This document shows positions 17,161-62,127 of a stretch of DNA of 64,000 nucleotides, piece after piece (the stretch's first letter is position 1; each line of letters starts with the position of its first letter). The notes beneath the pieces are model-generated. The model made no database searches. It was not told the origin of the DNA and saw only the letters and a list, made by a program, of their open reading frames with translations. The translations under genes and the position numbers were made by a program. The DNA lies in contig CM126212.1 in assembly GCA_052327205.1 (NCBI GenBank), positions 142,910,001-142,974,000 of the forward strand, in the 5' to 3' direction. Source of the stretch: Somniosus microcephalus. Taxonomy: Eukaryota.

Positions 17161-17324
17161 GAGCGGGAACAGATTTACAACCACAATCCACCCACATACC
17201 GAATTTCTCAGTGGCGTTATCATGGGAATGTCAAATGGAGACCAGATTCTTCTCCACTGGGAGGCAGCTTAACCCCGGGGTTGCTCTTCCACACAGCCTA
17301 GTGGCTACTTCCAGCTTTTTTTAA

Positions 17325-17632: not shown

Positions 17633-18654
17633 GAAAAACATGTACATAGCTTGCTGCTGTCTCACCCAGGTAAAAACTAATGTAACAGATTATTTTCATC
17701 CAAACATAATTTTACCATTCTAAATTATATATTCATATGTTGTTCCAAAGACCATCTGTTCAATAAAACCCTTGGCTGTTACTTCTGCTTCAGAATATTC
17801 ATAAGGACAAGCAGAGTGTACATGTATGCAACTAATGTGTGATGCAAATCATTTTGTCAGGTAGCTTTGTAAACAGCACGATCTCTGGTTCATGCAGTAC
17901 TCTGGTTCATGTTGATTTTCGATGCCATCTATCCAGAACATCAACACCCCCCCAATTTTCTCCCCTCTCTATTTACCGCCACTGAATCGTGCTGGGTACG
18001 GTCCCATGGGTGTGGATAGGTCTCCAGTTGGCCAACCAACTGGAGGCCGCTCTTCACGCGAGTGCTGTAACGCTGTTTTACCCTCCGAGGACCTGGCAGC
18101 CCAGCCCAATCTGGTTCTCCTCTGATGCTCACGTGCACACACTTTCAATGGGTAGCAATCGGGAGTGGAAACCCAGGCTCGTTTTTTCTTCCACAGCCCA
18201 AAGGTGTTCAGGTCAATAAGGTGTTCAGTGCCAAGTGCAGTGAGATCGGCAAACTCAGCACAGACCTCTGATCCAACCTATGGTTTGTATTGCTGGCTTC
18301 TGCCCACAAACCAAGCCTCCTGTGAACTGAAATGTCATGTTTATTCTCTGTTCTGTTTGAACTAACATAGCCCAGGCCTAACAACTAACTCTGGATGGTG
18401 TTAAAATGCTCACTGCAGAATACATAGGACGCTCACCATGCTCTCCCATCACTTCAGACAGAGAAAAATACTACACTGATCGACCTTAGGCTAAATCTGC
18501 TGTCCAGATTTATTTACAGACACAATAACAGGAAGCGGAAACATAGGCAAGAGTCTACAGTCTACTCCTTTAAATTTGAGGTTGTTTAATTCAAATTATA
18601 TATTAATTCCAACTTTTCTCAGCAAAAAAAACTGATTTATTTAAATTCTTTTGA

Positions 18655-19104
18655 AAAGACTTACATTTATATAGCACTTTTCACGACCTCAGCGTGTCCC
18701 AAAGCGCTTTACAGCCAATTAAGTACTTTTGAAGCATAGACACTGTTGCAAAGTAGGAAACACGGCAGCCAATTTGTGCACAGCAAGCTCCCACAAAAAG
18801 CAATTAAATAAATGATCAGATGATCTGTTTTAGTGATGTTGATTGAGGGATAACTGTTGGCCAGGACAGCAGGGAGAACTCCCCTGCTCTTCTTCGAAAA
18901 ATGCCATGGGATCTTTGACGTCCACCTGAGAGGGCAGACGGGGCCTTGGCTGAATGACACATCTGAGAGATGGTACTTCTGACCTCAACACTTCATCACT
19001 GGAGCGTCAGCCTAGATTTTATGCTTAAGACTCTGGAGTGGGGCATGAACCCACAACCTTATGACTCGGAGGCGAGAGTGCCACAACTGAGCCACGGCTG
19101 ACAC
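18655..19104 (-). mobile_element. Uninterrupted tRNA-headed SINE (Deu-domain, SacSINE1-like); empty-site reference for the Tx1 target
   Basis: Head GTCAGCCGTGGCTCAGTTGTGGCACTCTCGCCTCCGAGTC..., B-box-like GGTTCATGCCC, conserved body and GCTATATAAATG tail; family name from recall. Confidence 0.8.
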
Positions 19105-27353: not shown

Positions 27354-27354
27354 T

Positions 27355-35190: not shown

Positions 35191-36247
35191 TTTTTGCTCT
35201 TAGAATTGGCACCTCCTCAATTCGGATTTCAGGACGCCAGTGGCCTTGAACAGCTCCCAGTGTTTTGGTGGCTGCCTGCCTTAGCGGACCTAACGAGCAT
35301 ACTCTGGTGATGCCACCGGCTACACAGGACTGCACGTCAGAAGTCAGTGGCAATGCGACAGCCGCTGTAAGCACCATCGACGCTGCAGTTGAGCAGGCCC
35401 CCCTTGGTACTGTGCAGGTAGCTCCTGGTAGATCTGATGGCCCCTGGATGCTAACAGCACCTTTTATACTGGAAGTGGTTCCGTAATTCCGTCAACTTCG
35501 CTTGGAGGCAAATTCGCTCCCTGCATGGAGTGCGGAGTGGCTTCAGCCACAGTGGGACAACTGCACTCGTGCCTGCGTGTATGCTAGTGACAATCTGGCC
35601 GCAAACTTCACACCCCACCCCGTCCCGATACCAGAATGAGAAGCAGGAGGCCAGCAAAGGAGAAGTTGAAGCAAAAGAAAGAAATTGCATTTATATAGCG
35701 CCTTTTTCCACCTCAGGATGTCCCAAAGCGCTTTACAGCCAATGAAGTAGTTCTGAAGTGTAGCCACTGCTGTAATGTAGGAAATGCGGCAGCCTATTTC
35801 TGCATAGCAAGATCCCACAAACAGCAATGTGATAATGACCAGATAATCTAATTTTTTTTGTGATGTTTGTTGAGGGATAAATATTGACCAGGACACCGGG
35901 AAGAACTCCTCTGCTCTTCTTCGAAATAGTGCCGTGGGATCTTCTACGTCCACCTGAGAGAGCAGACAGGGCCTCGGTTTAACGTCTCATCCGAAAGACG
36001 GCACCTCCAACAGTCCAGCACTCCCTCAGTACTGCACTGAAGTATCGGTCTGGATTTTGTGCTCAAGTCTCTGGAGTGTGACTTGAACCCACAACCTTCT
36101 GACTCAGAAGCGAGGGTGCTGCCCACTTTTTTTTAATTTTTTTAAATTATACTTTATTGAACATTAAGAACATTTACAACATCGTGATCATTACATTGTA
36201 TGATACAAATCAATTCCACACAGCCATTCCGCCACCACATTTTAACA

Positions 36248-39200
36248 TCAAAACCTGAAGTTTAATTTGTCACCTGTAACATATATTAATCGATTGTACT
36301 TTAAAAATTGGTTGTAAAATACTGTCCTTAAATTCCTTTCTGAATAAAACATCCACAGAGCCTTATAATGGTCTTTTAGCTTATATTTAAAATACTCTTT
36401 TAGATTGATTCTCCTCCCCTTAAAAAACAGAGCATTCCTTCTTTGCACAATCACGAATCTAGCCAAACTGAATATTAAATTAATTGCTGCTCCGCGAGAC
36501 TCTGGCAGACTCTCCTGCAATCCCCATCTCAAAATTGAGTCCCACGGGATTCCCATTCTCGCTGTTCGGTCCCCACCCAGCAAAAAAGCTTCACACAACT
36601 GTCGAACATAGTACTTAAAGTAATTTAACTGCGGACATAACACCAGTAAATGGGACAGGGTCTCATCCTGTGTCCCACACATTGGGCAAGTTGCCGCCTC
36701 CACTCGTCCAATCTTGCACAAGACCGTCATTGTAAAAGTCCGGTTATGAGCCAATTTGAAATCCAGTTCAATCCATTCTGGGCATTTAAAATTCGCCCAC
36801 ACTCCCTTCCAAATCCTGTTGAAGTCCAGCTGTGGGTATATACTCTGCCAAAACTCCTGACCAGCAGGTGTCTTGAATCTCCATTCTCTGAATACCTCAT
36901 AGAAATCTCGAGTGTTACAGTTGTCAAATTGGACTAACTCTCCCCCTTTCTCCAGTACAAAGCTTGGAAAAGCGGGACGCATTTTACTTCCTTTGGAGAT
37001 TTCCGCATTTATTTCTTCCATCCAATCCTGTGGCATTGCCCTCACAATCTTCTCATACATGCTTCCTATTGCTTTTCCTTCTACCTCCTGATCCTCCTCC
37101 CACACCATGTCCCTCATTATCGCTTCTGGCAACCAACCTGGAATCACCTCGTATAATACATCTTTCACCGATATAATCCCAGCTTTTATAAAAGCTTGAT
37201 TAAATAAAACCTCTCCTTCGATGTTGACCCACCTGTTCAAAAATAAGGGCTGTTCTAAAAATTCCTCAGCCCCCTTGGGCATAAACTGCACACTTTTTAA
37301 AAATTGAGCCCAAGTCTCTACAACCCCCTTATAAAACCTAGGGAGAAACTTAATCGATTTCAAAAACATATTGGCCTAGAAATTGAGTGGGCTTTGCGCC
37401 CATTTTGCGGCGCTAGAGGTCATTGCGCTGGACTTACAGCCGGTTCAGAAATTCCCTGGGGCCCTACCATCGGCGGTAGACCAGATGCGCTGCGCCGGCA
37501 CCGATGACGTCATCGGTGTGCGCAGCGTCCCGGTTGCCGTGGTGACGGGCCCCAGCGCCGAAATTGAGTTGCGGCCGCCTCGCCCATGGCAGCCGCAACT
37601 AAGACTCTGGCAACCGAGTCTTACAGGAGTTTGCGCCGGCGCATTAAGGTCGCGCGGCGGCCGGCCGCTTTCCCGCCGGCCGCCTGCCCGCACCTCCCTC
37701 CCCGGACTCCTCCACCCGCCCCCCGGTGGAACAGATGCTTCTGGGCTGCGAGCCCGGCACTTCCCCGAGGTGCCGGGCTCATTTTTGTGAAGATTTTACC
37801 GGCCAGCGGGCGGGTGCAGGCAGCTCCTCCTTAACTGAAGGAGGAGGCCTGCACTTCCCGAGCCTGCCGCACCGCATCGGGTGCCGCAGCGCTGGAATAG
37901 CGCCGCAATGCAGCAGGTAGCGCCCATTTTCAGGCGCAAACACCCTTCAGTAGCGCCGGCAGCCGTTTGGGCATGGCGCTACTGAATTTTTGGCGCGCGC
38001 AGGGGGACTTAGCGCCAGCGCTAACTTTCCGGCGCTAAAGCCCTGGCGCGGCGCCAACTGAATTTCTAGGCCATTATTCTATTCCATATACAATATCCCC
38101 TGCCCTCCTATCCCACTTCGTTTAAAAAAATGCTCAAAACAACTCTTCCAAAAACTTGAATTTGACTTCTCAAGAAATCTCTTCACCCATTTGATTCTAA
38201 AGGATTTTTTCTTCAAATCAATATCTGGGAAGTTGAGTCCTTCCTGATTTCTCCGTCTAATGATGGTATTGTAAGCCACCAAGGCTGGTTTCCCTTCCCA
38301 TAAAAACCTCACACAAGCCTCTCGGATGGACTTTTCTGCCCACTCAGGAATATCCTCCACCGTCAATAAGTACCATAGCTTAGATAGCAGGAGAGCAGAC
38401 ACCACTGTCGTTCTTCCTTGCACTTTCAACCACCTTCTTTCCCATCTTCCCAAAATCTTTTTAATTTTCATAACCTTCGGTTCCCAATTTAATTGATCCA
38501 CTTCTTCCCTGTCTTTCTTGCACCCCATGTGCACCCCCAGAACTTCCAAAACCTCCACCACCTTAAAGGGACATTCCCCCAACCATTCCCCCCTACCCCT
38601 CCCTGCAACCAGGCATTGGGACTTACTATAATTCACTCTGGCACCTGAAGCTCTACAATATTCCTCCACTACCTCCATAGCTTTCCTCACTGACTCCCCA
38701 TTTCTCAATGTTAAGGTTGTGTCATCTGCATATTGGTGTATCACCGACACCAGCCCGGAACTGGGTAACACAATCTCAACTACACCTTGTTTCTTTCGCA
38801 TCATGTAACCTAATGGTTCTGCTACCAATGTGTACAGCAGTGGGGACAGGGGACAACCCTGTCTCACTGATCTCTGTATCGGAAAACACTTAGATAAAAA
38901 ACCATTACATTTAACACAGCTAAATATGTTTGAATAAAAAATCCTTATCCACTGAATGAAATTTTCCTTGAAACCAAATGCTTCCAAAACCTTCAATAAA
39001 AACTCATGAGAGACCCAATCAAAGGCTTTCTCTTGATCTATCTTTAATACATAAGCCTCCCTCCCATTCTCTTCCATGAGTTCTATCGCATCTCGGATTG
39101 AGACCACAGAGTCTGCGATGTCCCGGCCTATGACTCCATAGGACTGAGAGGGCTAAACTATCTCCGGTAACACCTCCTTCAAACGATTTGCCATAACCCT

Positions 39201-40806
39201 CGCCAAGATCTTATAATCCACATTTAATAGTGTGATGGGCCTCCAATTCTTCAGATCCCGTCTATCCCCTTTATTTTTATATAAGCTAAGCTTATGAAAG
39301 CTCTCCTCATAGATGGGGCCAGGTTTCCCTCAATTTTAATTTCCTTAAAAACTTCTAAGAGCAATGGATGTAAAATCTCAAAAAATTCCTCATAAAATTC
39401 TGCACTTAGTCCATCGGACCCTGGGCTTTTTCCCCCCTTCATTCCACTTATTGCTATTTTTATTTCCGCTAATCCTACTTCTTTATCACGCATGCTTCTC
39501 TCATCCTCCTTTAAACCCTTTTCAATAAAAGCAGTAACCTTCTCCGTCTCCAAATTGGAAGTGTCTTCTTTTGTATATAGCTCTTGATAAAAGCTGCTAG
39601 CTGCCTCCAAAATCTCCTCACTTTCATGAATGATCTTCTCCCCAACCTTCAACTCCTCAATTAACGATAATCTCTGTCGCAGCTTCTCTTGCTCTAGAAA
39701 ATATCTAGTGCATCTTTCGCCCTCCAATGCATCTCTAGCCTTTGCACGGAGAATGGCCCCCTTGCATTTTTCAGCTTGCAATAATTCCCACTCTTCCTTT
39801 CGCACCCGGAACTTAGTCTCAGCTCCCTTATCCCCTCCGCCAACTGCTTTACAGACATCCGTAAACCTTTTGTTTATATTCTCTTCTCGATGCCGGTTAG
39901 CTGCCGCCCTCTTTTGCCCATAACGTACCGAAAAAACTTTTACCTCATATTTGAAATTGTCCCACCAAACTCTTCTTTCTTTCAAGAACAAAAGTTCCTT
40001 CCGAGCATTCTTTATTATATTTATAATCCCTTCTTTATAAGCACTTTCCTTCAGGTATTGATTGTTTAAAATCCACACCCCTGAACCGATCTTAACTCTG
40101 CTGTTCCTAATTCTAAGAACCAAAGCCGAGTGATCACTAAAAAATACTTTTTTATAATAAATCTCCATCACCTCCGAACTTAACCCTTCCCGCATTAACA
40201 CAAAATCTATTCGGCTCTGTTTTAAACATCACCCACCCAACCTGCTCTGGAGAACTCCCTTTTTATGGGGTTCCGGTCCCTCCATAAGTCTCTCAAATTT
40301 AAATTTGCCGTCATTTTTATTATCATCCCTCTGGAGTTATCCTCTTTAAAGGTCATCTGGGCTGAAATGTCCATCCAAGATAAAAATACATTAAAGTCCC
40401 CCACTATACAAGGATTTTCCACCTCTGCCACTTCAGTGAATAACCCCCGAAAAAACTCGCGACGCTTGCAATGGTCGTTCGGTGCATAGATATTAAAAAG
40501 ATCACAATTAAATCCCTCCAATTTTACCCTTAGCCGTAAAAATCTCCCTTCAGTTTCCTTGTCCACCAAGGCAACATTCTCTTCTATGGACGGACTCACC
40601 AAAACAGCCACCCCTCTACGGTTATTGTTTGCACAACTTGCAAACACCTCTCCCTTCCAAACCTTCTGAACTCTTTCTAGAATATCCTCATCCCAAAAGG
40701 TTTCTTGCAGACACAAGAAGTCCGTGCCTTTAAAACCCTGCAACAACTGCTGCAATTTCTTCTCACCTCTCAGTCCGTTCACATTGATCGAGACCAATGT
40801 AATCAT
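36248..40806 (-). pseudogene. Tx1 ORF2 (APE endonuclease, RT, C-terminal zinc knuckle), disrupted by frameshifts, stops and a MITE
   Basis: SINVNG, LQET, GDFN, SDH, KSPGSDG, QGCPLSP, YADD, CPMCGTQDETLSHLLVLC. Confidence 0.92.
37373..38072. mobile_element. 700-bp GC/CpG-rich Harbinger-type MITE inserted in Tx1 ORF2
   Basis: TIR GGCCTAGAAATT / AATTTCTAGGCC, 3-bp TSD ATT; empty site visible in Tx1 copy 2 at ~55020. Confidence 0.92.
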
Positions 40807-42479
40807 GGAATCTCTGGCTCTTCCCTCCTCTCCTGCTCCTTCTCAACTTTTCGGGCAGCTGTTGCTTTTTCCTGCAGCCTCCAGCACTTTTTCCCCTCCT
40901 GTTTGACCCCTCCCTGCTGTTTCAGCCTCTTCCTTGCCTTACGTTTGGACCCAGGAGCTGCCCTTTCTCCCTCCTTCTGCCCCTCACGAACCTTTCCCTT
41001 TCCACATGATGCCACCCCATCCCCGACTTCCATGTCTCTGTCCCCCTCTAATACCTCACACTCAAGCTCTTCTGCAACCCCCTGTGCCTGCTCCCCGTCA
41101 GATACATAATCCTGCTCCCCGTCAGATACTTCCTCTCCCTTAGAGAGTCTTCCTGCTATTGCAGTTTCTCCCACTGTGCCGCCCCCTTCGACCACATCTC
41201 CACCTCTGACCCTTGCACCTTGTTCCCTCACTCCATGGGACAATGGCGCACATAAATTGTTCCCTTCCGATGTCTCTATCGCGCCGATCCCATTCTGCTG
41301 TCCCTTTAAGACTCCTGCCTCTTGCACCTTCTCCCCGCCCTGCCCCCTCACCAAAATATCCAACTCCCCGCCTCTCCCCGGACCACTCACTTCCACCACA
41401 CACCCCGCTCCTGCCTCCTCTCCCCCTGCAGACACCAGACTCCCCAGGGGGAGCCGAACTGCACTAAGGCTCGAGTCTGCACTCGATCCTCGCTGCCCGC
41501 AGCTGTCTTTGTTCCCCTCCATAGCACTTGCCGTGTTTTCCACCATCTCCCTCTCGATCTCCGCTCCGACATCCTCTGCCTCTTCCTGTGCTCCTTTTTC
41601 CTTCATTTTACTGGCTGTGTCCTCCGACTGCACCGCACCTCCGGCCTTTCCACACTCCTCTCCTGCTCCTCCTCCCATCTCCTCATCACTCATTTCGCTC
41701 CCTTCTGCCACACACTCACAGCAGGTGGGGCCTTTACGACACACCCCACAGCTCTCCGCCTTGCAGCTCCGCGCGATATGTCCCGACTCACCGCAATTGT
41801 AACAATACAAATCAGGACAATTTCTTACGAGATGGTCATGTCCCAGACAATAGTAACACACCTTTACTTGGTTATCGTGCAGCACACGAAAGTACTGTAC
41901 TCCTTCCAGTGTCTCGAACTTCATACTGTACAGCAAAGACCTCACCCCCTCTGGGAACCGCACCTTTACATACCGGGTTCCGTCTGCTACCCGTGTTCCC
42001 GGATAGTACCTCCTCTTTATTTCGGAACAGATTTTAATGTCCCACGACTCCAACTTTTTGCTCAGCACTTCGTCCTCGATGTACACAGGCAAGTTCAAAA
42101 ATGAAACCACCACCTCCTCTGAATATAGCAGAGTCACCTCCAAGAATTTCTCATCAACTTTCAGACTGAGCAGCAGTTTTTCCACCTCCTCACGGCCACT
42201 GACCGTCACCTCAAATCCCACATTTGGTTTTGGTCGGCAGGCAAAATAGCTTCCCTCGCCACAGTCCTCATGCACCGCCTGGATTATATCCCAGGCTTGA
42301 ATCTTCTTATCTTCACATTGCACCACCACCGTATTTTCTTTACCAAACCTCCTGAGGTCCCGGCCCAAATCTTTGGGCCTTTTTTTTCCCCTTTCCACCA
42401 CAGTTTCTTCCCTAATAAAATTCCTCTCGGGAATATTGTCCTCTGAGGGGCCCGGCACTCCGGACCCCTCAGCAGCCAT
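40803..42479 (-). CDS. Tx1 ORF1, gag-like protein (ZCCHC3-like, zinc knuckles), open in this copy
   Basis: VADGTRYVKVRFP, CYYCLGHDHLVRNC, CYNCGESGHIARSC; first ATG at 42479. Confidence 0.85.
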   Translation of the reverse strand: MAAEGSGVPGPSEDNIPERNFIREETVVERGKKRPKDLGRDLRRFGKENTVVVQCEDKKIQAWDIIQAVHEDCGEGSYFACRPKPNVGFEVTVSGREEVEKLLLSLKVDEKFLEVTLLYSEEVVVSFLNLPVYIEDEVLSKKLESWDIKICSEIKRRYYPGTRVADGTRYVKVRFPEGVRSLLYSMKFETLEGVQYFRVLHDNQVKVCYYCLGHDHLVRNCPDLYCYNCGESGHIARSCKAESCGVCRKGPTCCECVAEGSEMSDEEMGGGAGEECGKAGGAVQSEDTASKMKEKGAQEEAEDVGAEIEREMVENTASAMEGNKDSCGQRGSSADSSLSAVRLPLGSLVSAGGEEAGAGCVVEVSGPGRGGELDILVRGQGGEKVQEAGVLKGQQNGIGAIETSEGNNLCAPLSHGVREQGARVRGGDVVEGGGTVGETAIAGRLSKGEEVSDGEQDYVSDGEQAQGVAEELECEVLEGDRDMEVGDGVASCGKGKVREGQKEGERAAPGSKRKARKRLKQQGGVKQEGKKCWRLQEKATAARKVEKEQERREEPEIP

Positions 42480-43780
42480 CTGGCTGTTTTTTGTGGGGCA
42501 AAAAGGCCCTAAAACCTGAAAACAACACCCCAAAATCCTCCACCAACTTTTTACAAAACTTCCTCCAACACCCAGCTGCAATTAGGCAACCAGTCACACC
42601 TGGCTCACTCCTAGCCCCTCCCACCTAGAGAGTGCTACCCACTGAGCCACAGTTAATAATTGGAGGGCTGACATGTCTGCAGGACTCCAAGGTACAGAAC
42701 CCAACAGCAAGTGCTACCAGTTTGGCGGGGGGGGCACTATTAAACTTTTCTGTCAGCGGTACTGTTCATCAGAGGTGCCTAGCGAATACCCACCCCCCGC
42801 CCAACTTGAGGAATGTTTCACTGCCTGCAACCACAGCTGGTTCAGCTCCTCCACATTACAGGACTCCCCCCCACCCCCCGTGATGCTCTTGGCGTCAGAA
42901 GCATTCCTGTCGTATAAAAGGGCCCATTGGCTTTTACTCTCGTCAGGTGTGATATACCATTATAGGGAGGAGGATTTTCCTCTTCAGTTGTGAGAGTTTG
43001 ACCCAGGTGGGGTGGCATGGGAAGGGAGCCATTTTGCAGGCCAGTGGGCAAGTGCAGGCATTCCCACGATCTTCTGCCACGAGACCTTGAATGTCCCTGA
43101 CTTCAACGTCATAGTGACACTAAACACAAGTAATGTCGTCCGGCTCCTAGTGTGCATTGTTGCTCAGGGCCGGCAGAAGCCCCTCCCAAAGTTTACATCA
43201 GTTAGTTCACTCCTTCCCCCATGGATGTTTTAAACACTGCCCACAGAAACGGAGGCTGCCTTCGCCTCTCCGCAGGCCTCAGGTTCCGCTTTGCTGGTAC
43301 AGGTGCACAAGGCCTACAGCGGCCATTTCCCCTTCCTCTCCACCTCCCCATCCAAAGGTGGGCCCCCCTGGCACAGCTGGGAATCCAGAGGGAAATATTT
43401 CAATGAAGCGAGATTCACTGGGGTCAGTGGCATGTTCTTTGTCCATATACCTCAGTCAATTGGAAGTTTCCTTATTCTTATATATGTTGATATTTTATGG
43501 TCTTGTGTATAAAAAGATTAGGCCCATCCCCATCTACAGAGCCCTGTCCTGCCACTTTGATTTTGGATTTGGCAAAAGTTGCCAAGCTTAGCGGGAGCGG
43601 AGGAGAGAGAGAGAGGGGGGACCACGCCTGTCCCATGTGTATTAAATAGCAATGAGGTGGCCTACACGGGTCAGAGAAAAGGGGGGCAAAATTATGTTCA
43701 GTTCCAAGATGGTGGCTCTGACAAAGGGAGAGCAGCATTCCTCCTTTATTCACGAGTGCTCCCCCCCATCATCAGGGATT

Positions 43781-46700
43781 AAACATAGAAGATAGGAGCA
43801 GGAGTAGGCCATTCGGCCCTTCAAGCCTGCTCCGCCATTCAATGTGATCATGGCTGATCATCCAAATTCAGTACCCTGTCCCTGCCTTTTCCCCATATCC
43901 CGTGATCCCTTTAGCCTCAAGAAATATATCCAACTCTTTCTTGAATATATTTAATGAACTAGCCTCCACCGCCCTCTGTGGCAGAGAATTCCACAGGTTC
44001 ACCACTCTCTGGGTGAAGAAATTCCTCCTAATTTCAGTCCTAAATGGCTTACCCCTTATCCTTAGACTATGACCCCTGGTTCTGGACGCCCCGGCCATCA
44101 GAAACATCCTTCCTGCATCTAGTCTGTCCAGACCTGACAGAATTTTATAGGTTTCGATGAGATCCCCTCTCAATCTTCTAAACTCCAGTGAGTATAAGCC
44201 CAATCGACACAATCTCTCCTCATACGTCATTCCTGCCATCCCAGGTATCAGCCTGGTGAATCTTCGCTGCACTCCCTCCATGGCAAGAACGTCCTTCCTC
44301 AGGTAAGGTGACCAAAACTGCACACAATACTCAAGGTGCGGTCTCACCAAGGCCCTGTACAACTGTAGCAAGACATCCTTGTTCCTGTACTCGAACCCTC
44401 TTGCTACGAAGGCCAACATACCATTTGCCTTCTTAACCACCTGCTGCACCTGCATGCTTACCTTCAGCGACTGGTGCACAAGGACACCCAGGTCTCTTTG
44501 CACTTCCCCTTCTCCCAATCTATTGCCATTCAAATAATAATCTGCCTTCCTGTTTTTGCCACCAAAGTGGATAACCTCACATTTATCCACATTATAGTGC
44601 ATTTGCCATGTTTCTGCCCAATCACCCAACCTGTCCAAATCGTACTGGAGTTTCCCGACATCCTCCTCGCAGATTACCCTCCCGCCCAGCTTTGTGTTGT
44701 CTGCAAATTTGGAGATATTACATCAAATTCCCTCGTCCAGATCATTAATATATATTGTGAACAGCTGGGGTCCTAGGACCGATCCTTGCGGTACCCCACT
44801 AGTCACTGCCTGCCACTCGGAAAACGACTCGTTTATTCCAACTCTTTGCCTTCTGTCCGCCAACCAGTTCTCTATCCAAGTCAATACCTTGCCCCCAATC
44901 CCATGTGCCTTAATTTTGCACGCTAATCTCTTGTGTGGGACCTTATCGAAAGCCTTCTGAAAGTCCAAATACACCACATCCACTGGTTTTCCCCTATCTA
45001 TTTTACCAGTTACATCCTCAAAAAATTCCAGTAGATTAGTCAAGCATGATTTACCTTTTGTAAATCAATGTTGACTTTGTCCGATCCTGTCACTGCTTTC
45101 CAAGTGCTCTGCTATTACATCTTTTATAATAGACTCTAGCATTTTCCCCACTACCGATGTCAGGCTTACCGGTCTATAATTCCCCGCTTTTTCTCTACCA
45201 CCTTTTTTGAATAGTGGGGTAACATTAGCTACCCTCCAATCCATGGGTACCGTTCCAGAGTCTATCGAGTTCAGGAAGATGACCAGTAATGCATCTACTA
45301 TCTCCAGGGCCACTTCCTTAAGTACCCTGGGATGTAGACCATCAGGCCCTGGGGATTTATCGGCCTTCAGTCCCATCAATTTTCCTAACACCATTTTCCT
45401 ACAAATACTGATTTCTTTCAGTTCCTCTCTTTCATCAGACCCTATGTTCCCCGGCATCTCTGGGAGGTTATTTGTGTCCTCCTTTGTGAAGACAGAACCA
45501 AAGTATGTATTTAGTTGGTCTGCCATTTCCTTGTTTCCCATTATAAATTCCCCTGATTCTGACTGTAAGGGACCTACGCTTGACTTCACTAATCTTTTTC
45601 TCTTCACATATCTATAAAAGCTTTTACAGTCAGTTTTTATGTTCCTTGTTAGCTTACTCTCATATTCTATTTTCCCTTTCTTAATTAATCCCTTTGTCCT
45701 CCTTTGTTGACTCCTAAACTGCTCCCAATCCTCAGGATTATTGCTTTTTCTAGCCAATTTATATGTCCTCTCCTTGGATCTTATGCTATCCCTAATTTCC
45801 CTTGTTAGCCACGGTTGAGTCACCTTTTTTGTTTTATTTTTATGCCAAACTGGGATGAACAAATTCTGTAGCTCATCCATTCGGTCTTTGAATGTTTGCC
45901 ATTGCCTATCCACCATCAACCCTTTGAGCGCCATTCCCCACTCAATCCTACCCAACTCGCTCCTCAGACCATCGTAGTTTCCTTTATTTAAATTGAGGAC
46001 CCTTGTCTCTGAGTCAACTACTTCATTCTCCATCTTAATGAAGAATTCGATCATATTATGATCGCTCCGACCCAAGGGGCCTCGTACAACAAGATTGCTA
46101 ATTAATCCTTTCTCGTTACATAATACCCAGTCTAAGATGGCCTGATCTCTGGTTGGTTCCTCGACATATTGGTCCAGGAAACCATCCCGTAAACACTCCA
46201 GAAATTCCTCCTCCACAGTATTGTTACTAATTTGGTTGGCCCAATCTATATGTAGATTAAAGTCACCCATGATGACTGCTGTGCCCTTATTGCACGCTTC
46301 TTTAATTTCCCTTTTAATGCCATCCCCAACCTCCACCTTACTGTTTGGAGGTCTATATACCACTCCCACTAATGTTTTTTTCCCCTTAGTATTTCTCAAT
46401 TCTACCCATACAGATTCCACATCATCAGAGCTAATATCCTTTATTACAATTGTATTAATCCCTTCTTTAACCAGTAATGCTACCCCACCTCCCTTTCCTT
46501 TTTGCCTATCTTTCCTGAATATCGAATACCCCTGGATGTTGAGTTCCCAGTCTTGGCCATCCTTGAGCCACGTTTCTGTAATCCCAACCAAATCGTATTC
46601 GTTTACCTCTATTTGCGCAGCCAATTCATCCATCTTATTACAAATGCTCCTCGCATTAAGACACAAAGCCTTCAGGCTTGTTTTTTTAATGCTCTTAGGC

Positions 46701-47565
46701 CTATTAGAATTATTATTTACTGTGGCCACGTTTGATTTAAACCGTTGATTTCTCTGACTGCCACTTTTGTTTTTCTCCTTCCTATCTTTTGCTTTTATCC
46801 CTGTTTTCCTTTCCTCTGTCTCCCTGCTCAGGTTCCCAACCCCCTGCCATTTTAGTTTAAACCCCCCCGAACAGTGCTAGCAAACCTCCCCGCAAGGATA
46901 TTTGTCCCGCTCTGGTTCAGGTGCAACCCGTCTGACTTGTACAAGTCCCACCTTTCCCAGAAGCAGGCCCAGTGATCCAGGAAACTAAAGCCCTCCCTCC
47001 TGCACCAACTCTTTAGCCACGCATTCATCTGCTCTATCCTCCTATTCCTATACTCACTAGCACGTGGCACCGGGAGTAATCCAGAGATCACAACCTTTGA
47101 GGTCCTGCTCTTTAATCTGCTACCTAGCTCCCTAAATTCTTGTTGCAGGACCTCATCCCTCTTCCTACCTATGTCATTGGTCCCAATGTGAACCACGACC
47201 TCTGCCTGTTCACCCTCCCCCTTCAGAATGCCCTGCAGCCGTTCAGTGACATCCTTGACCCTGGCACCAGGGAGGCAACAAACCATCCTGGAGTCACGTC
47301 TACGGCCACAGAACCGTCTATCTGTTCCCCTTACGATAGAATCCCCTACCACTATTGCTCTCCCACTCTTTTTCCTCCCTTCCTGAGCAGCAGCAACACC
47401 CCCGGTGCCAGGAAGTTGGCTGCTGCTGCCTTCCTCTGGTGACTCATCCCCCTCAACAGTATCCAAATTGGTATACCTGTTTGAAAGGGGGATGGCCACA
47501 GGGGTCTCCTGCACTACCTGCCTGCTTCTACTGCTCCACCTGGTGGTCACCCATTTCCCTTCTGG
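43781..47565 (-). mobile_element. CR1 LINE (subfamily A), 5'-truncated in ORF1, ORF2 nearly intact
   Basis: ORFs 46852-47589 (esterase), 45065-46729 (endonuclease plus RT start), 44723-45043, 43868-44638. Confidence 0.95.
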
Positions 47566-49722: not shown

Positions 49723-50582
49723 GTAGGTTTAGGGACTCGCCCAATTCCAGCACTAAATTGGCAACCTCACACGTGAGAAAGCACACACGGCTGGCAGAGG
49801 TGCATTGCCGGAGCGGGGCAGAGGGCGCTTTGCTCTGCGTCCAACTGTGCTACACCTGGCCTGGGAGTAACTGGTGCTTGAAATGGAAAATATTCCGTTC
49901 CCCAGCACCGACAAACTTTAACGAATGAGCACAAAATTCATAGCAACAAAAAAAAAGTGAAAAAGAAATACATCTGGATTGATGGGCCCTCACACTGGTT
50001 CGATTAAAGCCAAGAGTTAGGGCTGCTCTCAGGATCAATCTGCTGCATCACACAGCCTTTGTCCTCAATTAAACCTTCCCTGGGCTCGAGTAATAAAAGA
50101 TCCTAGCAGTTCGGCATAAATGTCACCCTCTGACCTAGAAAATATCGCAGTGACCTGCAGTTTAAACCCACTCATCTCATGGATCCGACAAACACATATC
50201 ACAATCATTAAGCACCACGGACACAAGACAACAAATCATTTTCTTTTTCAAGGTTATATTCTCCCCTATTTTCTGCCGGACGGCAACATCGTGTTTCTCC
50301 CTCAGTTCCTCCTAGGCCCTCACCGAACTCATCTCCACTTTCAGGCCCACTCCCTGTGCCCTCAATCCCCTCCCAACTCATCATCACATAACTACCCCAT
50401 CAGTGTCAGCTGTGGCTCAGTGGGTAGCACTCTCTAGGTGGGAGGGACTAGGAGTGAGCCAGGTGTGACTGGTTGCCTAATTGCAGCTGGGTGTTGGAGG
50501 GAATTTTGTAAAAAGTTGGTGGAGGGTTTTGGGGTGTTGTTTTCAGGTTTTAGGGCCTTTTTGGCCCACAAAAAACAGCCAG

Positions 50583-52265
50583 ATGGCTGCTGAGGGGTCC
50601 GGAGTGCCGGGCCCCTCAGAGGACAATATTCCCGAGAGGAATTTTATTAGGGAAGAAACTGTGGTGGGAAGGGGGAAAAAAAGGCCCAAAGATTTGGGCC
50701 GGGACCTCAGGAGGTTTGGTAAAGAAAATACGGTGGTGGTGCAATGTGAAGATAAGAAGATTCGAGCCTGGGATATAATCCAGGCGGTGCATGAGGACTG
50801 TGGCGAGGGAAGCTATTTTGCCTGCCGACCAAAACCAAATGTGGGATTTGAGGTGACGGTCAGTGGCCGTGAGGAGGTGGAAAAACTGCTGCTCAGTCTG
50901 AAAGTTGATGAGAAATTCTTGGAGGTGACTCTGCTATATTCAGAGGAGGTGGTGGTTTCATTTTTGAACTTGCCTGTGTACATCGAGGACGAAGTGCTGA
51001 GCAAAAAGTTGGAGTCGTGGGACATTAAAATCTGTTCCGAAATAAAGAGGAGGTACTATCCGGGAACACGGGTAGCAGACGGAACCCGGTATGTAAAGGT
51101 GCGGTTCCCAGAGGGGGTGAGGTCTTTGCTGTACAGTATGAAGTTCGAGACACTGGAAGGAGTACAGTACTTTCGTGTGCTGCACGATAACCAAGTAAAG
51201 GTGTGTTACTATTGTCTGGGACATGACCATCTCGTAAGAAATTGTCCTGATTTGTATGGTTACAATTGCGGTGAGTCGGGACATATCGCGCGGAGCTGCA
51301 AGGCGGAGAGCTGTGGGGTGTGTCGTAAAGGCCCCACCCGCTGTGAGTGTGTGGCAGAAGGGAGCGAAATGAGTGATGAGGAGATGGGAGAAGGAGCAGG
51401 AGAGGAGTGTGGAACGGCCGGAGGTGCGGTGCAGTCGGAGGACACAGCCGGTAAAATGAAGGAAAAAGGAGCACAGGAAGAGGCAGAGGATCTCGGAGCG
51501 GAGATCAAGATGGAGATGGCGGAAAACACGGCGAGTGCTATGGAGGGGAACAAAGACAGCTGCGGGTAGCGAGGGTCGAGTGCAGACTCGAGCCTTAGTG
51601 CAGTTCGGCTTCCCCTGGGGAGTCTGGTGTCTGCGGGGGGAGAGGAGGCAGGAGCAGGGTGTGTGGTGGAAGTGAGTGGTCCGGGGAGAGGCGGGGAGTC
51701 GGATATTTTGGTGAGCGGGAGGGGGCAGGGCGGGGAGAGGGTGCAAGAGGCAGGAGCCTTAAAGGGACAGCAGAATGGGATCGGCGAGATAGAGACGTCG
51801 GAAGGGAACAATTTAGGTGCGCCATTGTCCTATGGAGTGAGGGAACAAGGTGCAAGGGTCAGAGGTGGAGATGTGGTCGAAGGGGGCGGCACAATGGGAG
51901 AAACTGCAATAGCAGGAAGACTCTCTAAGGGAGATGAAGTATCTGACGGGGAGCAGGATTATGTATCTGACGGGGAGCAGGCACAGGGGGTTGCAGAAGA
52001 GCTTGAGTGTGAGGAATTAGAGGGGGACAAAGACATGGAAGTCGGGGATGGGGTGGCATCATGTGGAAAGGGAAAGGTTCGTGAGGGGCAGAAGGAGGGA
52101 GAAAGGGCAGCTCCTGGGTCCAAACGTAAGGCAAGGAAGAGGCTGAAACAGCAGGGAGGGGTCAAACAGGAGGGGAAAAAGTGCTGGAGGCTGCAGGAAA
52201 AAGCAACAGCTGCCCGAAAAGTTGAGAAGGAGCATGAGAGGAGGGAAGAGCCAGAGATTAAATGA
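50583..52265 (+). pseudogene. Tx1 ORF1 with premature TAG at 51567-51569
   Basis: Colinear with the open ORF1 of copy 1 (CAG there). Confidence 0.88.
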
Positions 52266-55200
52266 TGGGGAGATTATTGGGCATACTTCCCTTCTTTGGA
52301 GCCATGATTATATTGGTCTCGATCAATGTGAATGGACTGAGGGGTGAGAAGAAATTGCAGCAGTTGTTGCAGGGTTTTAAAGGCACGGACTTGTTGTGTC
52401 TGCAAGAAACCTTTTGGGATGAGGATATTCTAGAAAGAGTTCAGAAGGTTTGGAAGGGAGAGGTGTTTGCAAGTTGTGCAAACAATAACCGTAGAGGGGT
52501 GGCTGTTTTGGTGAGTCCGTCCATAGAAGAGAATGTTGCCTTGGTGGACAAGGAAACTGAAGGGAGATTTTTACGGCTAAGGGTAAAATTGGAGGGATTT
52601 AATTGTGATCTTTTTAATATCTATGCACCGAACGACCATTGCAAGCGTCGCGAGTTTTTTCGGGGGTTATTCACTGAAGTGGCAGAGGTGGAAAATCCTT
52701 GTATAGTGGGGGATTTTAATGTATTTTTATCTTGGATGGACATTTCAGCCCAGATGACCTTTAAAGAGGATAACTCCAGAGGGATGATTATAAAAATGAC
52801 GGCAAATTTAAATTTGAGAGACTTATGGAGGGACCGGAACCCCATAAAAAGGGAGTTCTCCAGAGCAGGTTGGGTGGGTGATGTTTTAAAACAGAGCCGA
52901 ATAGATTTTGTGTTAATGCGGGAAGGGTTAAGTTCGGAGGTGATGGAGATTTATTATAAAAAAGTATTTTTTAGTGATCACTCGGCTTTGGTTCTTAGAA
53001 TTAGGAACAGCAGAGTTAAGATCGGTTCAGGGGTGTGGATTTTAAACAATCAATACCTGAAGGAAAGTGCTTATAAAGAAGGGATTATAAATATAATAAA
53101 GAATGCTCGGAAGGAACTTTTGTTCTTGAAAGAAAGAAGAGTTTGGTGGGACAATTTCAAATATGAGGTAAAAGTTTTTTCGGTACGTTATGGGCAAAAG
53201 AGGGCGGCAGCTAACCGGCACCGAGAAGAGAATAAAACAAAAGGTTTACGGATGTCTGTAAAGCAGGTTGGCGGAGGGGATAAGGGAGCTGAGACTAAGT
53301 TCCGGGTGCGAAAGGAAGAGTGGGAATTATTGCAAGCTGAAAAATGCAAGGGGGCCATTCTCCGTGCAAAGGCTAGAGATGCATTGGAGGGCAAAAGATG
53401 CACTAGATATTTTCTAGAGCAAGAGAAGCTGCGACAGAGATTATCGTTAATTGAGGAGTTGAAGGTTGGGGAGAAGATCATTCATGAAAGTGAGGAGATT
53501 TTGGAGGCGGCTAGCAGCTTTTATCAAGAGCTATATACAAAAGAAGACACTTCCAATTTGGAGATGGAGAAGGTTACTGCTTTTATTGAAAAGGGTTTAA
53601 AGGAGGATGAGAGAAGCATGTGTGATAAAGAAGTAGGATTAGCGGAAATAAAAATAGCAATAAGTGGAATGAAGTGGGGGAAAAGCCCAGGGTCCGATGG
53701 ACTAAGTGCAGAATTTTATGAGGAATTTTTTGAGATTTTACATCCATTGCTCTTAGAAGTTTTTAAGGAAATTAAAATTGAGGGAAGCCTGGCCCCATCT
53801 ATGAGGAGAGGTATCATAAGCTTAGCTTATAAAAATAAAGGGGATAGACGGGATCTGAAGAATTGGAGGCCCATCACACTATTAAATGTGGATTATAAGA
53901 TCTTGGCGAGGGTTATGACAAATCGTTTGAAGGAGGTGTTACCGGAGATAGTTTAGCCCTCTCAGTCCCGTGGAGTCATAGGCCGGGACATCGCAGACTC
54001 TGTGGTCTCAATCCGAGATGCGATAGAGCTCATGGAAGAGAGTGGGAGGGAGGCTTATGTATTAAAGATAGATCAAGAGAAAGCCTTTGATAGGGTCTCT
54101 CATGAGTTTTTATTGAAGGTTTTGGAAGCATTTGGTTTCAAGGAAAATTTCATTCAGTGGATAAGGATTTTTTATTCAAACATATTTAGCTGTGTTAAAT
54201 GTAATGGTTTTTTATCTAAGTATTTTCCGATACAGAGATCAGTGAGACAGGGTTGTCCCCTGTCCCCATTGCTGCACACATTGGTAGCAGAACCATTAGG
54301 TTACATGATGCGAAAGAAACAAGGTGTAATTGAGATTGTGTTACCCATTTCCGGGCTGGTGTCGGTGATACACCAATATGCAGATGACACAACCTTAACA
54401 TTGAGAAATGGGGAGTCAGTGAGGAAAGCTATGGAGGTAGTGGAGGAATATTGTAGAGCTTCAGGTGCCAGAGTGAATTATAGTAAGTCCCAATGCCTGG
54501 TTGCAGGGAGGGGTAGGGGGGAATGGTTGGGGGAATGTCCCTTTAAGGTGGTGGAGGTTTTGGAAGTTCTGGGGGTGCATATGGGGTGCAAGAAAGACAG
54601 GGAAGAAGTGGATCAATTAAATTGGGAACCAAAGGTTATGAAAATTAAAAAGATTTTGGGAAGATGGGAAAGAAGGTGGTTGAAAGTGCAAGGAAGAACG
54701 ACAGTGGTGTCTGCTCTCCTGCTGTCTAAGCTATGGTACTTATTGACGGTGGAGGATATTCCTGAGTGGGCAGAAAAGTCCATCCGAGAGGCTTGTGTGA
54801 GGTTTTTATGGGAAGGGAAACCAGCCTTGGTGGCTTACAATACCATCATTAGACGGAGAAATCAGGAAGGACTCAACTTCCCAGATATTGATTTGAAGAA
54901 AAAATCCTTTAGAATCAAATGGGTGAAGAGATTTCTTCAGAAGTCAAATTCAAGTTTTTGGAGCATTTTTTTAAACGAAGTGGGATAGGAGGGCAGGGGA
55001 TATTGTGTATGGAATAGAATAATATGTTTTTGAAATCGATTAAGCTTCTCCCTAGGTTTTATAAGGGGGTTGTAGAGACTTGGGCTCAATTTTTAAAAAG
55101 TGTGCAGTTTATGCCCAAGGGGGCTGAGGAATTTTTAGAACAGCCCTTATTTTTGAACAGGTGGGTCAACATCGAAGGAGAGGTTTTATTTAATCAAGCT

Positions 55201-56145
55201 TTTATAAAAGCTGGGATTATATCGGTGAAAGATGTATTATACGAGGTGATTCCAGGTTGGTTGCCGGAAGCGATAGTGAGGGACATGGTGTGGGAGGAGG
55301 ATCAGGAGGTAGAAGGAAAAGCAATAGGAATCATGTATGAGAAGATTGTGAGGGCAATGCCACAGGATTGGATGGAAGAAATAAATGTGGAAATCTCCAA
55401 AGGAAGTAAAATGCGTCCCGCTTTTCCAAGCTTTGTACTGGAGAAAGGGGGAGAGTTAGTCCAATTTGACAACTGTAACACTCGAGATTTCTATGAGGTA
55501 TTCAGAGAATGGAGGTTCAAGACACATGCTGGTCAGGAGTTTTGGCAGAGTATATACCCACAGCTGGACTTCAACAGGATTTGGAAGGGAGTGTGGGTGA
55601 ATTTTAAATGCCCAGAATGGATTGAACTGGATTTCAAATTGGCTCATAACCGGATTTTTACCATGACGGTCTTGTGCAAGATTGGACGAGTGGAGGCGGC
55701 AACTTGCCCAATGTGTGGGACACAGGATGAGACCCTGTCCCATTTACTGGTGTTATGTCTGCAGTTAAATGACTTTAAGTACTATGTTCGACAGTTGTGT
55801 GAAGCTTTTTTGCTGGGTGGGGACTGAACAGCGAGAATGGGAATCCCGTGGGACTCAATTTTGAGATGGGGATTGCAGGAGAGTCTGCCAGAGTCTAGCG
55901 GAGCAGCAATTCATTTAATGTTCAGTTTGGCTAGATTCGTGATTGTGCAAAGAAGGAATGCTCTGTTTTTTAAGGGGAGGAGATTCAATCTAAAAGAGTA
56001 TTTTAAATATAAGCTAAAAGGCCATTATAAGGCTCTGTGGATGTTTTATTCAGAAAGGAATTTAAGGACAGTATTTTACAACCAATTTTTAAAGTACAAT
56101 CAATTAATATATGTTACAGGTGACAAATTAAACTTCAGGTTTTGA
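52262..56145 (+). pseudogene. Tx1 ORF2 (APE-RT-zinc knuckle) with stops at 53954, 55015, 55825 and a small deletion near 54960
   Basis: ORFs 52262, 54002, 55024, 55837; motifs as in copy 1. Confidence 0.92.
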
Positions 56146-56759
56146 TGTTAAAATGTGGTGGCGGAATGGCTGTGTGGAATTGATTTGTATCATACAATGT
56201 AATGATCACGATGTTGTAAATGTTCTTAATGTTCAATAAAGTATAATTTTAAAAAAAAAGTGGTTAGCACCCTCGCTTCTGAGTCAGAAGGTTGTGGGTT
56301 CAAGTCCCACTCCAGGGACTTGAGCACAAAAATCTAGGCTGACGCTCCAGTGCAGTGCTGGAGGTGCCATCTTTTGGATGAGACGTTAAACCGAGGCCCC
56401 GTCTGCGCTCTCAGGTGAACTTAAAAGATCCCGTGGCACTATTTCGAAGAAGAGCAGGGGAGTTATCCCCGGTATCCTATAGTCAATATCCCGGTAGTCA
56501 ATATTTAGCCCTCAGTCAACATAACAACAAAACAGATTATCTGGTCATTATCACATTGCTGTTTGTGGGAGCTTGCCGAGTGCAAATTAGCTGCCGTGTT
56601 TCCCACATTACAACAGTGACTACACTCCAAAAGTACTTCATTAACTGTAAAGCGCTTTGAGATGTCCGCTGGTCTTGAAAGGCGCTACAGTATATAGATG
56701 CAAGTCTTTTTTTCTTTCATTGTGGCCCAACTTGCCAATAGCTCCTTCTCTTCAGACTC

Positions 56760-57494: not shown

Positions 57495-60400
57495 TCAAGA
57501 TTGAGTGAGTAGGCAAATACATGGCAGATGCAGTATAACGTGGATAAGTGTGAAGTTATCCACTTCAGTAGGAAAAACAGAAAGGCAGAGTATTATATAA
57601 ATGGTGATAGATTGGGAAGTGTTGATGTACAGAGGGACCTGGGTGTCCTTGTACACCAGTCACTGAATGCAAACATGGGACCAATGACATAGGTAGGAAG
57701 AGGGATGAGGTCCTGCAGCAAGAATTTAGGGAGCTAGGTAGCAGATTAAAGAGTAGGACCTCAAAGGTTGTAATCTCTGGATTACTCCCGGTGCCACGTG
57801 CTAGTGAGTATATAGGAATAGGAGGATAGAGCAGATGAATGCGTGGCTAAAGAGTTGGTGCAGGAGGGAGGGCTTTAGTTTCCTGCAGCACAGGGCCTGC
57901 TTCTGGGGAAGGTGGGACTTGTACAAGTCGGACGGGTTGGAGGTTGGGAACCTGAGCAAGGAGACAGAGGAAAGGAAAACAGGGATAAAAGCACAAGATA
58001 GGAAGCAGAAAAACAAAAGTGGCAGTCAGAGAAATCAACGGTTTAAATCAAACGTGGCCACAGTAAATAATAATTCTAATAGGTCTGAGAGCATTAAAAA
58101 AACAAGCCTGAAGGCTTTGTGTCTTAATGCGAGGAGCATTTGTAATAAGGTGGACGAATTGGCTGCGCAAATAGAGGTAAATGAATATGATTTGGTTGGG
58201 ATTACAGAAACGTGGCTCAAGGATGGCCAAGACTGGGAGCTCAACATCCAGGGGTATTCGATATTCAGGAAAGATAGGCAAAAAGGAAAGGGAGGTGGGG
58301 TAGCATTACTGGTTAAATAAGTGATTAATACAATTGTAATGAAGGATATTAGCTCTGATGATGTGGAATCTGTATGGGTAGAATTGAGAAATACTAAGGG
58401 GAAAAAAACATTAGTGGGAGTGGTATATAGACCTCCCAACAGTAAGGCGGAGGTTGGGGACAGCATTAAAAGGGAAATTAAAGAAGCGTGCAATAAGGGC
58501 ACAGCAGTCATCATGGGTGACTTTAATCTACATATAGATTGGGCCAACCAAATTAGTAACAATACTGTGGAGGAGGAATTCCTGGAGTGTTTACGGGATG
58601 GTTTCCTGGACCAATATGTCGAGGAACCAACCAGAGATCAGGCCATCTTAGACTGGGTATTATGTAACGAGAAAGGATTAATTAGCAATCTTGTTGTACG
58701 AGGCCCCTTGGGTCGGAGCGATCATAATATGATCGAATTCTTCATTAAGATGGAGAATGAAGTAGTTGACTCAGAGACAAGGGTCCTCAATTTAAATAAA
58801 GGAAACTACGATGGTCTGAGGAGCGAGTTGGGTAGGATTGATTGGGGAATGGCACTCAAAGGGTTGACGGTGGATAGGCAATGGCAAACATTCAAAGACC
58901 GAATGGATGAGCTACAGAATTTGTTCATCCCAGTTTGGCATAAAAATAAAACAAAAAAGGCGACTCAACCGTGGCTAACAAGGGAAATCAGGGATAGCAT
59001 AAGATCCAAGGAGAGGACATATAAATCGGCTAGTAAAAGCAATAATCCTGAGGATTGGGAGCAGTTTAGGAGTCAACAAAGGAGGACAAAGGGATTAATT
59101 AAGAAAGGGAAAATAGAATATGAGAGTAAGCTAACAGGGAACATAAAAACTGACTGTAAAAGCTTTTATAGATGTGTGAAGAGAAAAAGATTGGCGAAGT
59201 CAAGCGTAGGTCCCTCACAGTCAGAATCAGGGGAATTTATAATGGGAAACAAGGAAATGGCAGACCAACTAAATACATACTTTGGTTCTGTCTTCACAAA
59301 GGAGGACACAAATAACCTCCCAGAGATGCCTGGGAACATCGGGTCTGATGAAAGGGAGGAACTGAAAGAAATCAGTATTTGTAGGGAAATGGTGTTAGGA
59401 AAATTGATGGGACTGAAGGCCGATAAATCCCCAGGGCCTGATGGTCTACATCCCAGGGTACTTAAGGAAGTGGCCCTAGAGATAGTAGATGCATTGCTGG
59501 TCATCTTCCAGAACTCGATAGACTCTGGAATGGTACCCATGGATTGGAGGGTAGCTAATGTTACCACACTATTCAAAAAAGGTGGTAGAGAAAAAGCGGG
59601 GAATTATAGATCGGTAAGCCTGACATCGGTAGTGGGGAAAATGCTAGAGTCTATTATAAAAGATGTAATAGCAGAGCACTTGGAAAGCAGTGACAGGATC
59701 GGACAAAGTCAACATGGATTTACAAAAGGTAAATCATCATGCTTGACTAATCTACTGGAATTTTTTGAGGATGTAACTGGTAAAATAGATAAGGGAGAAC
59801 CAGTGGATGTGGTGTATTTGGACTTCCAGAAGGCTTTCGATAAGGTCCCACATAAGAGATTAACGTGCAAAATTAAGGCACATGGGATTGGGGGCAAGGT
59901 ATTGACTTGGATAGAGAACTGGTTGGCGGACAGAAAGCAAAGAGTTTGAATAAATGGGTCGTTTTCCGAGTGGCAGGCAGTGACTAGTGGGGTACCGCAA
60001 GGATCGGTCCTAGGACCCCAGCTGTTCACAATATACATTAATGATCTGGACGAGGGAATTGGATGTAATATCTCCAAATTTGCAGACGACACAAAGCTGG
60101 GTGGGAGGGTAAGCTGTGAGGAGGATGTCGTGAAACTCCAGTACGATTTGGACAGGTTGGGTGATTGGGCAGAAACATGGCAAATGCACTATAACGTGGA
60201 AAAATGTGAGGTTATCCACTTTGGTGGCAAAAACAGGAAGGCAGATTATTATTTGAATGGCAATAGATTGAGAGAAGGGGAAGTGCAAAGAGACCTGGGT
60301 GTTATTGTGCACCAGTCGCTGAAGGTAAGCATGCAGATGCAGCAGGCGGTTAAGAAGGCAAATGGTATGTTGGCCTTCGTAGCAAGAGGGTTCGAGTACA

Positions 60401-61704: not shown

Positions 61705-62127
61705 TGGAGAAAATATATAGAATGAATATCTGGAAGTGAATTGCGGGCTGGAATCTAATCATGAGGTTCCCAAGATATTTATTACTTTGTACAGTATATG
61801 ACAGCAGAACACGAGTCTCAGCCACAAGAAGGAGCAGACAACCTTATTGCAGGACAGGTCAGATCTCACTTAACTAAGGCTCCTGAAACTTTCCCTCATT
61901 ATATGGCACAACCATGAGATTATATGTGGCTTGGGAAAGAGAATTTCCAGTGTTTCACCTCATGTACAAACATATAAATGTTATACATGATAAGATAAGG
62001 GCTTCTTAAAAATAAACAGTTGCACTCAGGAAACCCTTCAAGAACCCCAGAATTCTTTATTTGGACTTTTAGGAACTCAGTGATGTAACTGGGCAGAGTC
62101 CTTTTCTTTGCCATTATCAAAAAACCG

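Follow-up and report, generated by a model that had tools for sequence, protein, structure and literature searches.

We examined a 64,000-nucleotide stretch of the Somniosus microcephalus genome (NCBI GenBank assembly GCA_052327205.1, contig CM126212.1, positions 142,910,001 to 142,974,000; hereafter the window, with positions counted from its first letter) that carries two full-length copies, A and B, of a Tx1-like long interspersed nuclear element (LINE). Both are inserted at the same base of a short interspersed nuclear element (SINE) of about 460 bp with a tRNA-like head, and each is bounded by a 16-bp duplication whose two halves differ. Summed over the models weighed below, it is likely that the two halves come from different SINE copies, and the asymmetry probably records a flank transfer of at most 20-25 bp. 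Among the possible routes we tentatively favor one in which the 5' duplication copy is carried by the element RNA from a donor SINE, as in R2. The more surprising feature is the conserved antisense tip of the LINE, its first 27 nucleotides (nt). What is new here is that this tip is the strongest complement of the intact SINE head within the whole element and is kept by related families. In the following list, duplication sites are numbered 1-16, and +19 and similar positions continue into the host SINE.

50403..50434, plus strand: SINE head upstream of copy B, ending in the 5' duplication copy (50419-50434)
50435..56259, plus strand: LINE copy B, full length, with broken open reading frames 1 and 2 (ORF1 and ORF2) and AATAAA followed by 9 A
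50435..50461, plus strand: 27-nt tip block of copy B, an imperfect complement of the SINE head from -6 to +20
56259..56274, plus strand: 3' duplication copy at B (T6, C13)
56275..56717, plus strand: rest of host SINE B, with T19 at 56277
42628..42652, minus strand: SINE head upstream of copy A, with the 5' duplication copy 42643-42628; the first ~9 nt of the head are missing or diverged
36128..42627, minus strand: LINE copy A, full length, with ORF1 open, ORF2 broken and a 700-bp element inside
42601..42627, minus strand: 27-nt antisense block of copy A, with the G that all reads and at least 99% of contig depth show at B position 50447
36112..36127, minus strand: 3' duplication copy at A (C7, C13)
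35674..36111, minus strand: rest of host SINE A, with T19
18654..19102, minus strand: uninserted SINE with an intact head, the intact-target control

The 5' copies at 50419-50434 (plus strand) and 42643-42628 (minus strand) are identical, as a first-pass annotation of this DNA had claimed, and the identity between the loci extends over 25 bp of 5' flank. That annotation was also right that each 5' copy differs from its own 3' copy at two positions (2 of 16). The mismatch at site 13 is common to both loci (both 5' copies have T and both 3' copies have C); the others are private, at site 6 in B and at site 7 in A. The LINE copies themselves differ in 88 of 5774 columns (1.5%), and 17 of the 54 coding differences are synonymous, a neutral share, which together put decay at about 0.76% per copy since insertion. 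By decay alone, two or more mismatches in 16 bp at both loci have a probability of 6e-4, and the same change at the same site and on the same side at both loci has one of about 1e-3. Decay cannot explain the mismatches. We consider it rather unlikely that these are ordinary duplications of 16 (or 12) bp whose pattern comes from decay together with an endonuclease preference for one head haplotype, or from coincidence in a large scan. Their length is normal for the group, only two loci are involved, the T6 change is recent (see below), and a 12-bp version leaves one private mismatch per locus (p = 0.028 for both). However, a true 16-bp duplication differing alike at two loci incurs the second probability just given, and the 12-bp version concedes sites 13-16 to the element.

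The 3' flanks had also been described as unlike free SINEs, and this is borne out at +19, where T in both hosts contrasts with C in the free copies at 19080 and 62135. T19 does occur in a third, decayed free copy at 24306. The SINE at 62135 (62120-62135) lacks the head upstream of about site 3, which makes it a weaker control than had been assumed; it is preceded by a six-A run, and its start near the expected LINE-tail join may mark a remnant junction. A carried tract of 40-60 bp, as first proposed, did not survive comparison: between +21 and +60 the hosts are alike at 38 of 40 sites, but each is equally alike to the free SINE at 62135 (38 of 40), a similarity that reads as ordinary head conservation. 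Host-specific similarity is limited to the first 20 bp (18 of 20 between hosts versus 14-15 of 20), and informative columns number 2 of 18 near the junction versus 4 of 369 beyond (p = 0.03, post hoc). Beyond +60 the hosts agree at 306 of 369 sites (83%), so that the host SINEs must be old, and transduction of a whole SINE with the 3' end is ruled out. A shared host subfamily was likewise rejected: beyond +20, among four copies, 4 informative sites join the hosts and 6 and 2 split them. The alternative in the first-pass annotation, preference for one SINE subfamily, thus finds no support. Segmental duplication as the origin of the pair is ruled out, as the sequence beyond the SINEs is unrelated.

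The two LINE copies are full length, inverted and only 7.8 kb apart, an arrangement that would suit a model in which both flanks travelled, through DNA-level copying (break repair or gene conversion) between the copies or through an RNA with target sequence at both ends. Shared sequence stops within ~25 bp (5') and ~20 bp (3') of the junctions, and LINE differences are overdispersed over 50435-55935 (p = 3e-4), with 19 falling in a single 500-bp bin and 2 in each of two others, an unevenness for which CpG content or conversion may be responsible. However, the asymmetry would still need a separate origin, the two loci differ immediately at the junction in their A-tails and at sites 6 and 7, and the 147 bp without a difference at the 3' end of the copies is within chance at 1.5%. 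In addition, a second inverted pair of another LINE type lies nearby (97.3% identical), showing that the region collects young copies. Travel of both flanks is in our estimate quite improbable. Homing by gene conversion would imply co-conversion tracts of tens of bases or more on both flanks, and these are not present: host-specific similarity ends by +20 and the 5' flank is native to site 7. Of the original idea that stretches of SINE head were carried over from a donor, the origin of the two halves in different copies stands as likely, with a tract of at most ~20 bp and no support for travel of both flanks.

The 5' junction (50050-50590) was aligned to contigs of organisms C, D and E, from which rare variants are dropped, and to RNA reads of organism A. 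In all four runs, loose ends of free heads start at 50400-50403, which is the basis for the head start given for B. Behind 50434, the commonest continuation of free heads matching the flank is C19 in all four runs. At site 13, T is commonest and A accounts for 23-32% of depth; C13 is absent from the 40 variants listed (32 more are hidden, and the ranking rule is unstated). Since all 40 reach about 20% in some run, C13 probably lies below 20%. Among free heads, C13 and T19 thus seem to be the minority alleles. The possibility that the 3'-flank variant is common in uninserted SINEs, which the first-pass annotation had raised against itself, is not what we found, with C19 commonest and C13 unlisted.

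An orthologous contig in organism D (X7 record 17) spans 50050-50425, ending before site 13, with 12 differences that all fall at or before 50377; over 50378-50425 the B flank and the orthologue are identical. This makes the 5' flank of B native as far as site 7, G6 included; T6 in the 3' copy at B is recent rather than an old host variant, since the orthologue has G6. The B site in organism D is probably empty, because its flank has diverged by 3.2% and all D depth at 50464 comes from six contigs with 12-28 differences each. Among 24 listed pieces (21397 more are unlisted), 6 of the 7 long contigs from D and E that join the LINE tip to divergent 5' untranslated regions (UTRs) begin in the SINE head, which argues that SINE-head specificity is family-wide. 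The seventh (931 bp, X7 record 23), without an aligned SINE head, still aligns from site 12, which gives weak support to carriage of the 5' copy. The sole contig of organism C over 50464-50471 (depth 374) has T13, and the 5' junction is identical in both window copies and this dominant contig, with rare variants dropped as noted.

The first-pass annotation caught the asymmetry at the junction and missed the antisense block at the 5' tip of the LINE. Pairing of the tip with the intact free head at 19080 covers -6 to +20, includes nine consecutive pairs spanning the insertion point and reaches -36.5 kcal/mol (all pairing energies are RNA-RNA energies). None of the other 27-nt windows of either copy pairs as well with the intact head (0 of 4498 in A, 0 of 5759 in B). 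Energy alone is not unique, because 3 unrelated C-rich sites scored better among 42527 windows on both strands. With the 5' flank in A, 10 of 4498 other windows pair as strongly as the tip. The SINE head and the first 27 nt of the LINE are predicted to fold into a hairpin with its loop at the junction; this is stronger than expected in copy A (z = -3.0, 1 of 200 shuffles) and less so in copy B (z = -1.35), which has a private change in the stem.

Depth at 50447 versus 50464 is 36922 versus 63 in organism D (X7), 20611 versus 8 in organism E (X11), 2815 versus 374 in X4 and 75 versus 37 in RNA reads, and 3 of 4 joints depart from the reference at 50458-50459. Judged by this depth, the tip block is what has been retained by related families in three other organisms. 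Free-SINE contigs with mismatched tails do not account for the depth past 50434, as they would reach ~50442 at 80% likeness, not 50447, and raw reads drop likewise. A second conserved block of the 5' UTR lies at 50525-50581, and related families replace the linker between it and the tip. We rejected the idea that the tip selects C13/T19 targets: sites 9-21 pair at -14.5 kcal/mol, versus -16.8 and -21.3 for two free heads, and C13 pairs better with the tip only over sites 7-16 (-13.6 versus -10.6 kcal/mol). The antisense tip is also not a general Tx1 trait, being absent in L005, the sole distant full-length relative tested, in which 2794 of 5938 windows pair as strongly. The comparison is limited to L005 because its closest counterparts to the element described here (L081, L082, L085, L007 and L099) are without 5' ends. 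No ribozyme family was among 5 weak Rfam matches at the junction up to E 10, and no ribozyme like that of hepatitis delta virus (HDV) was seen by eye at the 5' end, with no P3/L3 before the 7-bp stem of the fold.

The carriage of the 5' copy by element RNA, which we tentatively favor, starts from the fixed site, the geometry of the 16-bp duplication and the 27-nt tip complementary to the head; the weights that we give to this and the other models are estimates from two loci. The transcript would begin in the SINE head that precedes the LINE. The piece so carried, perhaps no longer than sites 12-16, would form a hairpin with the tip, the loop lying at the junction. The endonuclease would nick the target at site 1/2, and reverse transcription would run to the 5' end of the RNA. 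The cDNA of the carried piece would then anneal to the upstream target arm, and mismatches near the junction would take the donor allele (T13). In support of this, the 5' flanks are identical over 25 bp despite hosts that are 83% alike beyond +60, and each 3' copy has a private change. An unusual nick is not needed, since a 15-16 bp stagger is normal in the group (SINEU-3; the perfect duplication at L005).

Several observations weigh against this model. It leaves unexplained why both targets have C13 and T19, and would need target preference or coincidence, all the more as these appear to be minority alleles and the hosts are without a common subfamily. The 5' flank needs no donor, as the B flank equals the orthologue over 50378-50425 and T13 is the commonest free allele. 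Moreover, the tip pairs at -36.5 kcal/mol with the intact head versus -23.5 with the 5' flank alone, so its partner may be something other than the 5' flank. A13 occurs at some LINE-linked 5' junctions in related families, so the 5' copy varies across families, and no transcript start was reported in one RNA run with 511 reads aligned.

In a somewhat doubtful alternative, it is the 3' flank that travels. Read-through RNA with ~19-20 nt of donor SINE would be primed at or beyond +19, from a downstream nick or a trimmed primer, and donor C13 and T19 would replace the target alleles, leaving the 5' copy as the true target. This accounts for both shared alleles and the asymmetry in one step, and agrees with hosts that lack a common subfamily and with the orthologue, which shows a 5' flank native to site 7 and a recent T6. 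Because site 13 is polymorphic in free heads, as the frequency of A there indicates, a C13 donor would be standing variation. Annealing of read-through RNA to the target has been reported for R2Ol, SART1 and R1Bm (PMC6795142, PMC7265360). However, the available text of these papers describes annealing, not replaced target bases. Among 38 carried sites, two private changes would be needed (p = 0.035); site 19, which lies outside the duplication, would have to be rewritten on both strands; and the A-tails differ. In addition, the 5' flanks of A and B must be alike over 25 bp with no transfer between them, for which the probability is 0.07-0.28 if heads are 90-95% identical.

The tip may alternatively act as an RNA guide, a reading to which we give little probability. 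The first 27 nt would span the insertion point by pairing with the top strand of the intact head. The bottom strand would thereby become available for priming, the upstream arm would be kept in place for the 5' join, and the flanks would exchange alleles as the reaction proceeds. Room is left for such a role because the tip pairs best with the intact target. As to origin, the tip may be a captured antisense piece of the target, by analogy with the suggestion made for SINEU-2B, that was later kept as a promoter or pairing element.

The protein sequences are consistent with a LINE of the Tx1 clade. ORF2 matches Exo_endo_phos, RVT_1 and zf-RVT in Pfam, and thus has an apurinic/apyrimidinic (AP)-type endonuclease, a reverse transcriptase (RT) and a C-terminal zinc domain; it also matches human L1 ORF2. 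ORF1 of copy A encodes 592 amino acids with a zinc knuckle, zf-CCHC being its sole Pfam match. A CCHC-knuckle ORF1 in place of the vertebrate L1 ORF1 domain, which is absent here, is what we take to be diagnostic of the clade. The copies also show target preference, as both of the window copies and 6 of 7 listed junction contigs lie in the SINE head; the threshold used elsewhere is more than 20% of flanks of one type (PMC4494074). In copy B, ORF1 has a stop at 51569, and ORF2 is in three pieces (endonuclease, RT and zinc domain).

Close proteins are 34-41% identical and carry no family name. An RT tree of 39 rows (27 loci chosen from 144, 11 proteins and the window copy), without a named Tx1 reference, places the element in a 16-row clade (100/97) with L081 and L082, which are associated with 5S genes, and L099, associated with tRNA. 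The tails of L081 (4440-4534) and L082 (2750-2844) join 5S rRNA genes at two different positions, and the records are labelled as bacterial metagenome-assembled genomes (MAGs). L099 (3860-8052), a relative truncated at its 5' end, sits in a tRNA-Asp gene belonging to a 498-bp tandem array, where ~10 bp of the target are missing; its record, also labelled a bacterial MAG, is likely animal DNA. Such a clade would fit Mutsu and Dewa, described as 5S- and tRNA-spacer-specific elements (PMC3706591). L090-L092, L097 and L101 are LINEs within repeats carrying U1, U2 and 5S genes, with a LINE 3' end running straight into U1. L005 is a distant U1-targeting relative with a perfect duplication and no antisense block.

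The element resembles the target-specific LINEs of the Tx1 clade, namely Mutsu (5S rRNA genes), Dewa (tRNA-Leu spacer), Keno (U2), Tx1L (Tx1D) and Tx1-Mar (Mariner-N4), in its AP endonuclease and RT, its fixed site in a multicopy small-RNA-like or transposon sequence and its ~16-bp duplication. It differs from them in its target, a tRNA-like SINE head, its antisense 5' tip and its asymmetric duplication. None of these, that is, a SINE-head-specific Tx1 family, an antisense 5' tip or an asymmetric duplication in Tx1, was found in the literature searched, which did not include Repbase, the 2004 Tx1 survey or most subscription papers.

R2 offers the closest parallel to RNA carriage of the 5' copy. 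When R2 RNAs retain 9-36 nt of upstream rRNA, their 5' junctions are uniform, an element-encoded P1' pairs with target-derived P1, and in the earwig R2 a 22-bp duplication of downstream target is fixed and contains three substitutions (PMC3774820). As in the R2 elements with upstream 28S sequence described there (earwig, sow bug and silkmoth), a target-derived 5' piece would here pair with an element strand, anneal as cDNA and propagate a mismatched duplication. However, the restriction-like endonuclease of R2 is replaced by an AP-type enzyme, its single ORF, HDV-like ribozyme and co-transcribed rRNA target are not present, and the complementarity spans the insertion point. SINEU-2B has a 5' extension that resembles its Mariner target in the opposite direction, and this reversed 5' piece is a precedent for capture of the antisense tip (PMC4494074). 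The SINEU-2B extension marks one subfamily of a non-autonomous element, whereas the tip here is conserved in several related families.

The body and tail of the host SINE presumably resemble SacSINE1, which consists of a tRNA head, a Deu domain and an L2 tail. ARAGORN found no tRNA in the window, and SINE motif scans of viral, metagenome and genome contigs gave no matches. SacSINE1 is a shark Deu-SINE of about 460 bp with a tRNA-like head (PMC5499810), and the host SINE, of the same length and with a similar head, is likened to it by description, not by consensus sequence. Copy A also contains the following later insertion, which we assume to be a non-autonomous Harbinger-type element from its resemblance.

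37373..38072, no strand assigned: ~700 bp, GC-rich, with 33-nt terminal inverted repeats and a 3-bp duplication

Other mobile elements surround the LINE pair. The second inverted pair of young LINEs (43781-47562, minus strand, and 57676-61005, plus strand; 97.3% over 3067 bp) has a GDSL-esterase ORF1 and lies beside the Tx1-like pair, not mirrored with it; older copies are at 20552-23790 and 24702-27356. A DNA transposon at 2490-6768 is bounded by perfect 16-nt terminal inverted repeats and encodes a DDE_Tnp_4 transposase (2976-4292); its second ORF runs on the opposite strand (4503-5267), and a further 60-nt inverted pair (2394-2453, 6772-6831) flanks the element. A long terminal repeat (LTR) retrotransposon at 10314-14992, just downstream of an N gap (9685-9837), has 206-bp direct repeats that are 98.5% alike and ORFs for a knuckle, protease, RT, RNase H and integrase. 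A tandem array with a 44-bp unit and an internal inversion occupies 16329-17172.

Finally, how the 5' end of a LINE is joined to its target is an open question that has been studied mostly in R2 (PMC6895275). Because the target here is a polymorphic, high-copy SINE, each insertion records donor versus host allele, and one genome assembly could answer questions of 5' joining that ribosomal DNA targets cannot. Conservation of the antisense tip suggests that an AP-endonuclease element uses RNA pairing as well as protein for targeting or 5' joining. If the tip does guide, an AP-endonuclease LINE would be recognizing its target through RNA, could be retargeted by changes to 27 nt and would be a candidate for programmable insertion.
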